Assembly (NCBI RefSeq): GCF_013167455.1
Contig: NZ_CP038328.1
Strand: one strand, 5' to 3'
DNA: 64,000 nt
From: Escherichia coli O157:H7
GTDB taxonomy: Bacteria; Pseudomonadota; Gammaproteobacteria; Enterobacterales; Enterobacteriaceae
How positions within the stretch are numbered: the stretch's first letter is position 1; every line of letters begins with the position of its first letter. This document shows, one piece after another, positions 6,209 through 45,499 of this stretch. The notes under the pieces are model-generated. The model was not told the origin of the DNA. It did no database searches and saw nothing but the letters and a program-made list of their open reading frames with translations. The translations under genes were made by a program, and so were the position numbers.

Positions 6209-7750
<1,542 letters not shown>

Positions 7751-7835
7751 CCTTAAAGAACTGTACTTTGCAGTGCTCACACAGATTGTCTGATAGAAAG
7801 TGAAAAGCAAGGCGTCTTGCGAAGCAGACTGACAC

Positions 7836-7911
7836 GTCCCCTTCGTCTAGAGGCCCAGGACACCGCCCTTTCACGGCGGTAACAGGGGTTCGAATCCCCT
7901 AGGGGACGCCA
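7836..7911 (+). tRNA. gltW: tRNA-Glu in the 16S-23S spacer
   Basis: 76-nt GTCCCCTTCGTCTAGAGGCCCAGGACACCGCCCTTTCACGGCGGTAACAGGGGTTCGAATCCCCTAGGGGACGCCA; TTCACGG anticodon loop context; encoded CCA end. Confidence 0.95.
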
Positions 7912-8104
7912 CTTGCTGGTTTGTGAGTGAAAGTCGCCGACCTTAATATCTCAAAACTCATCTTCGGGTGATGTTTGAGATATTTGCTCTTTAAAAATCT
8001 GGATCAAGCTGAAAATTGAAACACTGAACAACGAAAGTTGTTCGTGAGTCTCTCAAATTTTCGCAACATGATGATGAATCGAAAGAAACATCTTCGGGTT
8101 GTGA

Positions 8105-11007
<2,903 letters not shown>

Positions 11008-11099
11008 ACAACGCCGAAGGTGTTTTGGCGGATGAGAGAAGATTTTCGGCCTGATACAGATTAAATCAGAACGCAGAAGCGGTCTGATAAAACAGAATT

Positions 11100-11219
11100 T
11101 GCCTGGCGGCCTTAGCGCGGTGGTCCCACCTGACCCCATGCCGAACTCAGAAGTGAAACGCCGTAGCGCCGATGGTAGTGTGGGGTCTCCCCATGCGAGA
11201 GTAGGGAACTGCCAGGCAT
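11100..11219 (+). rRNA. rrfG: 5S ribosomal RNA
   Basis: TGCCTGGCGGCC...GAACTGCCAGGCAT, 120 nt. Confidence 0.95.
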
Positions 11220-11230
11220 CAAATTAAGCG

Positions 11231-11260
11231 AAAGGCCATCCGTCAGGATGGCCTTTTTGC
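11231..11260 (+). terminator. rRNA operon rho-independent terminator
   Basis: aggccatcc-gtca-ggatggcct hairpin followed by tttttg. Confidence 0.7.
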
Positions 11261-11278
11261 GTTGGTGAAAAAAATGCC

Positions 11279-11306
11279 TGATGCGACGCTGCGCGTCTTA
11301 TACTCC
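11279..11306. repeat. Degenerate REP-like element downstream of the rRNA operon
   Basis: gcctgatgcgacgctgcgcgtcttatac matches the 5' part of the REP consensus, then diverges. Confidence 0.4.
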
Positions 11307-11539
11307 CACATATGCCAGATTCAGCAACGGATACGGTTTCCCCAACTTGCCTACTTCCATACGTGTCCTCCTTACCAGAAATTTATCCTTAAGCTCCTCA
11401 ATAACCATTTTCCTGCTAACTAAATTCATGGTTAAGGTTGCATAATGATACGTAACAAATGTATAACATTTTCTTTGCCAAAAGAAATAAACAAAAGCGA
11501 CCGACAAAAGCATCGGATTACGGCAGGAGACATAATGGC

Positions 11540-12838
11540 ATGGCTGAAAGTACTGTAACGGCAGACAGCAAACTGACAAGTAGTGATACTCGTCGCCGCA
11601 TTTGGGCGATTGTGGGGGCCTCTTCAGGTAATCTGGTCGAGTGGTTCGATTTCTATGTCTACTCGTTCTGTTCACTCTACTTTGCCCACATCTTCTTCCC
11701 TTCCGGGAACACGACGACTCAACTACTACAAACAGCAGGTGTTTTTGCTGCGGGATTCCTGATGCGCCCAATAGGCGGTTGGCTATTTGGCCGTATAGCC
11801 GATAAACATGGTCGCAAAAAATCGATGCTGCTATCGGTGTGTATGATGTGTTTCGGCTCACTGGTAATCGCCTGTTTGCCTGGTTATGAAACAATCGGTA
11901 CGTGGGCTCCGGCATTATTGCTTCTCGCGCGTTTATTTCAGGGATTATCCGTTGGCGGAGAATATGGCACCAGCGCCACCTATATGAGTGAAGTTGCCGT
12001 TGAAGGGCGCAAAGGTTTTTACGCATCATTTCAGTATGTGACGTTGATCGGCGGACAACTGCTAGCCCTACTGGTTGTCGTGGTTTTACAACACACCATG
12101 GAAGACTCTGCACTCAGAGAGTGGGGATGGCGTATTCCTTTCGCGTTAGGAGCTGTGTTAGCTGTTGTGGCGTTGTGGTTACGTCGTCAGTTAGATGAAA
12201 CTTCGCAACAAGAAACGCGCGCTTTAAAAGAAGCTGGATCTCTGAAAGGATTATGGCGCAATCGCCGTGCATTCATCATGGTTCTCGGTTTTACCGCTGC
12301 GGGCTCCCTTTGTTTCTATACCTTCACCACTTATATGCAGAAGTATCTGGTAAATACTGCGGGAATGCATGCCAACGTGGCGAGTGGCATTATGACTGCC
12401 GCATTGTTTGTATTCATGCTTATTCAACCACTCATTGGCGCGCTGTCGGATAAGATTGGTCGCCGTACCTCAATGTTATGTTTCGGTTCGCTGGCAGCCA
12501 TTTTTACCGTTCCTATTCTCTCAGCATTGCAAAACGTTTCCTCGCCTTATGCCGCTTTTGGTCTGGTGATGTGTGCCCTGCTGATAGTGAGTTTTTATAC
12601 ATCAATCAGTGGAATACTGAAGGCTGAGATGTTCCCGGCACAGGTTCGCGCATTAGGCGTTGGTCTGTCATATGCGGTCGCTAATGCTATATTTGGTGGT
12701 TCGGCGGAGTACGTAGCGTTGTCGCTGAAATCAATAGGAATGGAAACAGCCTTCTTCTGGTATGTGACCTTGATGGCCGTGGTGGCGTTTCTGGTTTCTT
12801 TGATGCTACATCGCAAAGGGAAGGGGATGCGTCTTTAG
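11540..12838 (+). CDS. kgtP: Alpha-ketoglutarate:H+ symporter (MFS)
   Basis: 432-aa ORF from ATG 11540 ([12 protein letters not shown]...); MFS motifs and multiple hydrophobic segments. Confidence 0.9.
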
Positions 12839-45467: not shown

Positions 45468-45499
45468 GCCCGGATGAGGCATTCACGCCGCATCCGGCA
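45468..45499. repeat. REP (repetitive extragenic palindromic) element
   Basis: gcccggatgaggcattcacgccgcatccggca, imperfect palindrome of REP type. Confidence 0.6.

Follow-up and report, generated by a model that had tools for sequence, protein, structure and literature searches.

A 3′-truncated y-type REP element between an rRNA operon and kgtP in Escherichia coli O157:H7

The rrfG-kgtP spacer and its REP-like sequence

REPs of E. coli are imperfect palindromes of 30–40 nt with a conserved GTAG at the foot (PMC3333891). The spacer between the 5S rRNA gene rrfG and kgtP carries what appears to be only part of such an element, which raises the question of whether this is a REP that decayed, one that was interrupted, or a chance resemblance, and whether it retains any activity. 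The DNA analyzed here (the window) is a stretch of 64,000 nt from E. coli O157:H7, in which the spacer covers positions 11260–11539 and is 100% identical to E. coli O157:H7 chromosomes. Immediately upstream is an rrn operon with 16S, tRNA, 23S, and 5S rRNA genes at 6209–11217 (Rfam). The features that the argument depends on are listed here by window position.

11102–11217, plus strand: 5S rRNA (rrfG), final gene of the rrn operon (Rfam RF00001, 93 bits; annotated as rrf in the identical O157 record)
11231–11256, plus strand: rrnG terminator hairpin with an 11-bp stem, followed by TTTTT (read from the sequence; flagged on the minus strand)
11268–11274: run of seven A on the plus strand, equivalent to a U7 run on the minus strand (sequence)
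11276–11301, plus strand: 3′-truncated y-type REP, in iREP orientation on this strand, comprising the head, the loop, and the inner 3′ arm as far as CTTAT (pattern match; orthologous full REPs in alignment A1)
11280–11297: residual inner hairpin of 6 bp, GAUGCG/CGCGUC, or alternatively GACGC/GCGTC (folding)
11298–11360, minus strand: yfiS, 20 codons plus TAA, peptide MEVGKLGKPYPLLNLAYVGV (b4783 in NC_000913.3; translations)
11298–11408, minus strand: in-frame ORF of 36 codons, putative collapsed yjaB paralogue, MVIEELKDKFLVRRTRMEVGKLGKPYPLLNLAYVGV (nucleotide and protein similarity to yjaB)
11540–12838, plus strand: kgtP, alpha-ketoglutarate permease (similarity and annotation)

The arrangement of rrn operon and kgtP is syntenic throughout Enterobacterales, with 5S rRNA upstream of kgtP in more than 20 loci. 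The distance between the two is 322 nt in E. coli. It is 730–1165 nt in Superficieibacter, Leclercia, Siccibacter, Enterobacter, and Pantoea, with additional sequence that does not resemble YjaB, and in Pectobacterium and Dickeya the 5S rRNA upstream of kgtP is duplicated in tandem. Rfam searches of the spacer at the gathering and E ≤ 1 thresholds identified no RNA family and returned weak chance matches only (RNAI and a Burkholderia sRNA). Within the operon, a StyR-44 match (123 bits) at 7989–8097 falls directly before the 23S rRNA, inside the 16S-23S spacer, as is usual in enterobacterial rrn operons.

On the plus strand, positions 11276–11301 read GCCTGATGCGACGCTGCGCGTCTTAT, identical to the first 26 nt of our y-type REP query, minus one loop base. 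The query is the reference sequence GCCTGATGCGACGCTGGCGCGTCTTATCAGGCCTACG from Durrant et al. (PMC11208160). The match to the y consensus GCCTGATGCGACGCTGGCGCGTCTTATCAGGCCTAC(G) is partial in the same way, with 26 nt present, one loop base fewer, and the last ~10 nt gone. The missing tail, CAGGCCTAC, comprises the outer 3′ arm and the CTAC/GTAG box; after CTTAT the window instead reads ACTCCCACAT, and the box is absent at 11302–11310 (ACTCCCACA). Roughly 26 of the 37 nt of a REP (~70%, about three-quarters) are thus kept, including the loop and the two inner-stem arms.

Scanning the window with the full-length REP consensus (≤3 mismatches) gave zero matches. We switched to head and tail sub-patterns, since even the two good REPs elsewhere in the window deviate in the foot box:

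45468–45499, minus strand: intact z-type REP palindrome downstream of purL, with foot box GCAG rather than GTAG (folds at −18.8 kcal/mol)
63177–63206, minus strand: intact z-type REP palindrome between the convergent genes yphB and yphA, with AAAT and no GTAG box (folds at −24.8 kcal/mol, z −6.2)

The REP-head pattern matched once in the window, compared to none of 100 dinucleotide-preserving shuffles. Sub-pattern scans of the spacer detected neither a displaced REP tail (CTTATCMGGC or CGYCTTATCMGGCCTAC) nor a second REP. The element is therefore not a BIME, which belongs to the same repeat family and consists of paired REPs with a linker, but a solitary REP, as it is in every allele of this locus that we examined; 84 of the 584 REPs of K-12 are solitary (PMC3333891). 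PGAP and NC_000913.3 contain no REP features, and the REP between yphA and yphB is likewise unannotated. Because these sources annotate no REPs at all, the lack of an annotation at 11276–11301 is uninformative.

An earlier note on this DNA, made from the sequence alone, had reported canonical REP palindromes after purL and yphB and the first half of a REP at 11279–11306, its second half replaced by unrelated sequence. Both palindromes are real z-type REPs, the second at 63177–63206 (63178–63208 in the note). The REP head also held up, with a true span of 11276–11301 and well over half of the element preserved. The tail is indeed absent; what takes its place, however, is the 3′ end of yfiS, which appears to be the relic of a yjaB paralogue (see below).

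Orthologous alleles and their insertion sequences

We compared the spacer to others in an alignment of nine orthologous or paralogous sequences (A1). In the eight sequences other than the window, a REP occupies the same position after the rrn terminator and A run, and in six of them it is complete. Five of the complete elements are in the rrnG-kgtP spacer, in EC42405, JNE25-005, ETEC4079, E. albertii, and a divergent Escherichia genome, and end in CCTAC, CTTAC, or TTAAC; the sixth is in the paralogous rrnE-yjaB flank of isolate AF3. The CCTAC box is found in EC42405, JNE25-005, E. albertii, and AF3. What follows the REP differs among alleles: in EC42405 the full element GCCGGATGCGACGCTGGCTGCATCTTATCCGTCCTAC immediately adjoins GCTCCCACAT, in JNE25-005 it is followed by a 33-nt spacer, in ETEC4079 by a different spacer, and in E. 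albertii and the divergent Escherichia genome by ~30 nt. The kgtP gene of ETEC4079 is annotated as frameshifted (a pseudogene; locus segment 651–956).

The truncated alleles of O157, K-12, and ST131 have one junction in common, GTCTTAT followed directly by ACTCCCACAT. The remnant is identical in K-12 and O157, and nearly so in ST131, which differs at REP position 4 and at one loop base. The spacer as a whole is unusually variable, with 87–100% identity across genomes, and the rrnG terminator hairpin, which can be read on the minus strand too, is kept in all alleles of A1. Outside Escherichia, REP-like palindromes are located 3′ of the rrn terminator in Citrobacter youngae, C. werkmanii, and Pseudocitrobacter faecalis.

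Since the element is complete in the outgroups and in the paralogous rrnE flank, its truncation is derived, and because the truncated allele is shorter than the full one (66 vs. 76 nt), it arose by deletion rather than by insertion. To see how common each state is, we counted alleles in 5426 complete E. coli genomes by junction-specific BLAST with coverage thresholds. The counts below are approximate and are genomes rather than independent events, and with slight overlap between classes they sum to ~102% of genomes.

Truncated, O157/K-12 type: 3710 genomes
Truncated, B2/ST131 type: 770 genomes
Full REP plus 33-nt spacer: 193 genomes
ETEC4079-type full-REP allele: at most ~530 genomes
Full REP abutting yfiS: ~7–9 genomes
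Full REP abutting yfiS, with an IS110-family insertion: 349 genomes

The two truncated types jointly account for ~83% of the 5426 genomes.

That the orthologous element is a true REP is supported independently by insertion sequences. In E. coli, REP specificity has been shown by experiment for two of these, IS1397 and IS621 (PMC1525189), and IS621 inserts at a CT core, ATCAGGCCT^AC, with the natural target ATCAGGCCTAC (PMC11208160). In 349 genomes, including the E. coli type strain ATCC 11775, the full-length REP is interrupted at ...ATCCGACCT^AC..., the CT core of the REP tail, by an element that we call IS110-family, or IS621-like, from its PGAP annotation and junction alone; these 349 occurrences may represent one old insertion. 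The REP of LF82 is split twice, by the end of an IS1397-family element in the loop (PGAP) and by an IS110-family element between ...CTTATCCGACCT and ACGCTCCCACAT, the latter target differing from the IS621 target ATCAGGCCTAC at positions 4 and 6. A single 37-nt REP in LF82 (locus segment 200–1600) thus contains two different REP-specific elements. MSB1_1A has an IS3-family element in the REP loop, between GCTGGC and GCGCGTC (segment 500–560). The orthologous full REP therefore resembles the known target sites closely, with the IS110-family insertion exactly at the CT core and that of IS1397 in the loop (PMC11208160; PMC1525189), whereas the window allele has no 11-nt IS621-type target, ATC(A/G)GGCCTAC.

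The comparison of this spacer across strains that the earlier note proposed yields complete REPs at the same position, contrary to what a diverged non-REP spacer would give. Of the two histories that it suggested, decay holds, by deletion, and interruption by an insertion does not. The IS110-family and IS1397 insertions inside the full-length alleles confirm, for this locus, what it said of REPs in general, namely that they are targets of recombination.

yfiS and its relation to yjaB

One gene, yfiS (b4783), is annotated in the orthologous spacer of NC_000913.3, and the window encodes the same 20-residue peptide, with a Shine-Dalgarno sequence, TAAGGAGG, at 11367–11374, 6 nt upstream. The REP remnant lies between rrfG and kgtP, yet positions 11298–11301 overlap the end of yfiS: the TTA within the CTTAT of the REP provides its stop codon (11298–11300), and the last base of its final sense codon is also REP-derived.

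The remainder of yfiS resembles yjaB, a peptidyl-lysine N-acetyltransferase gene beside rrnE. A stretch of 41 nt (11305–11345) is 98% identical to the 3′ end of yjaB; at the protein level, the final 21 codons correspond to YjaB residues 127–147, with 17 of the 21 amino acids identical (E 1e-10). A 13-nt match at 11400–11412 to the start region of yjaB is weak alone (E 0.017). By these similarities, the 36-codon ORF looks like a yjaB paralogue with ~110 internal codons deleted, and yfiS like the tail of that ORF. The two loci are alike in the last 21 codons, the start region, and the layout of 5S rRNA, terminator, (REP), and opposite-strand gene. They are unlike in that the ORF beside rrnG is missing those internal codons and only its last 20 codons are annotated and translated, as YfiS; with 36 in-frame codons left, a complete acetyltransferase domain (~147 aa in YjaB) cannot be encoded. 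A tblastn search of 32 loci from other Enterobacterales identified no intact yjaB-like gene between 5S rRNA and kgtP. We did not find a description of yfiS as a collapsed yjaB paralogue with a REP-derived stop codon in the searchable literature.

The rrnE flank of AF3 contains 5S rRNA, terminator, REP, and yjaB, with no yjaA between, and is 87% identical to the rrnG spacer over the terminator and REP; because the two align, we regard the rrnG and rrnE flanks as paralogous. In AF3 (locus segment 857–1424) yjaB encodes 158 aa rather than 147 and ends at the TAG within the GTAG box of the REP, so that there too the stop codon is supplied by a REP.

Conservation of the yfiS segment is uneven. At 11305–11345 the B2, JNE25-005, and E. 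albertii alleles differ at ~7–10 of the 41 positions, and the sequence to each side is far more diverged. The O157/K-12 version looks like a short gene-conversion patch from yjaB, possibly acquired through the concerted evolution of rrn operons. The ORF itself is poorly conserved: EC42405 has no ATG, a 9-nt deletion leaves ETEC4079 with 17 aa, the frame of the divergent Escherichia genome is closed by a stop after 11 aa, and the E. albertii orthologue has a weaker Shine-Dalgarno sequence and no nearby stop codon. This pattern argues against strong purifying selection on YfiS, which RiboReport lists with small ORFs that initiation-site profiling detected and western blots validated (PMC8921622).

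Folding of the remnant and competing explanations

Folding separates the remnant from full-length REPs. The remnant forms a 6-bp hairpin only, at −8.1 kcal/mol (z −1.7) on the plus strand and −8.2 kcal/mol (z −0.44) on the yfiS strand, compared to −11.2 to −17.1 kcal/mol for the orthologous full REPs and −18.8 and −24.8 kcal/mol for the window's intact REPs. The imperfect palindrome of 30–40 nt with its long bulged stem-loop cannot be formed. Binding and cleavage by TnpA(REP) require the GTAG box and a mismatch in the stem (PMC3333891), and the remnant, in which the GTAG box and bulged outer stem are missing, is predicted not to be a TnpA(REP)/RAYT substrate. By the same requirement, the REPs at 45468–45499 and 63177–63206 may be immobile copies too, as GCAG and AAAT replace GTAG there.

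On the yfiS strand, a simple terminator scan, which does not allow bulged stems, missed REP and U-run arrangements, and folding was used instead. Minus-strand folds place U6 immediately behind the full REP hairpin in E. albertii and 3 nt behind it in EC42405. A minus-strand U run directly behind the REP hairpin is a terminator-like arrangement, which we take to be a possible role of this pair in full-REP alleles. In the window the small hairpin lies 10 nt from the U7 run, so there is no intrinsic-terminator arrangement for the yfiS strand and the putative terminator-like role would be lost; further along that strand, the next hairpin is formed by the rrnG terminator read in reverse.

Compared to a y-type REP (Bachellier; Ton-Hoang et al., 2012, PMC3333891), the remnant has 26 nt of consensus head, loop, and inner 3′ arm and lies in the 3′ flank of a gene, as is typical of REPs. 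It differs in having no outer 3′ arm and no CTAC/GTAG box, in one loop base fewer, and in its 4-nt overlap with the end of yfiS. It should be filed as a REP remnant rather than as a REP, being y-type by descent but failing on both the palindrome and GTAG.

We consider it very probable that window positions 11276–11301 are an inert, deletion-truncated y-type REP whose sole lasting consequence is the yfiS stop codon. A single y-type REP would have been located just 3′ of the rrnG terminator in the Escherichia ancestor, within the 3′ flank of a gene resembling yjaB beside the rRNA operon. On the branch to most E. coli, a single small deletion (~9–10 bp when measured against the closest full-length allele, ~40 bp against E. 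albertii) would have removed the outer 3′ arm, the CTAC (GTAG) box, and the spacer behind it, so that the CTTAT inside the REP came to adjoin the final codons of the yjaB relic; the TTA of the REP would then act on the minus strand as the TAA stop of yfiS. The remnant would be inert as a REP because it has no long imperfect palindrome, no GTAG box, no IS621-type site, and no hairpin directly before the U run, and it appears to have lost the activities of a REP without a function of its own. Deriving the truncated allele from any of the full alleles by one microhomology-mediated deletion (CTTAT...CTTAT or TA...TA) requires one or two extra substitutions in every case.

The deletion could also have been non-neutral. 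It would have created the YfiS stop codon and the C-terminal residue from REP sequence, and erased an IS landing site between the rRNA operon and the kgtP promoter, and one of these effects would have driven its rise to ~83% of genomes; we regard this as unlikely. If true, yfiS would be a young gene built from a collapsed yjaB duplicate and a repeat element.

A role for the residual hairpin itself is improbable. The remnant might be kept since a small hairpin behind the yfiS stop slows termination or ribosome release, or protects the mRNA 3′ end, and the hairpin does begin ≤1 nt from the yfiS TAA. Liang, Rudd, and Deutscher reportedly found in 2015 that REPs within ~15 nt of a stop codon lower expression via ribosome stalling and trans-translation, an effect that would fit this position. 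The junction that is identical in O157, K-12, and ST131, together with the western-blot validation of YfiS (PMC8921622), is also consistent with such a role. However, on the yfiS strand the hairpin does not exceed shuffled sequence in stability (z-score as above), yfiS itself is poorly conserved, and common descent alone predicts an identical junction.

It is highly improbable that the truncated form is ancestral and that full REPs arose later, whether copied from the rrnE-yjaB flank through gene conversion or newly inserted. Over 101 nt, the JNE25-005 allele and the AF3 rrnE-yjaB flank share 93% identity, and exchange between rrn flanks therefore occurs; the 98% identity of the O157/K-12 yfiS segment to yjaB likewise has the look of a conversion patch. 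Against this order of events, a full REP with a spacer behind it occupies the locus in E. albertii as well as in the divergent Escherichia genome, REP-like palindromes lie at the same place in Citrobacter and Pseudocitrobacter, and a perfect 26-nt REP head with no tail is hard to produce except by truncation.

Interruption by an insertion, with the second half of the REP further downstream, would fit the abrupt loss of similarity after CTTAT but is extremely improbable and refuted by A1: the spacer has no REP tail, the truncated alleles are the shorter ones, and what lies beyond the break is homologous to the 3′ end of yjaB and also comes after the full REP in other alleles. Chance resemblance in a diverged non-REP spacer, for which the missing tail with nothing beyond it might speak, has a negligible probability and is refuted by the 26/26 match against 0 of 100 shuffles and by the orthologous full REPs, into which REP-specific IS elements have inserted.

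REPs, partial REPs, and insertion sequences that target REPs are all established, and the deletion-truncated element described here is a remnant of an already known kind, an ordinary genomic fossil that matters little in itself. The locus is nonetheless a compact and well-sampled case of REP turnover, with one truncated and several full alleles among 5426 genomes and two REP-specific IS families in one 37-nt element. YfiS probably stems from a yjaB paralogue that collapsed beside rrnG and took its stop codon from a REP, an origin that bears on whether YfiS is a functional gene.
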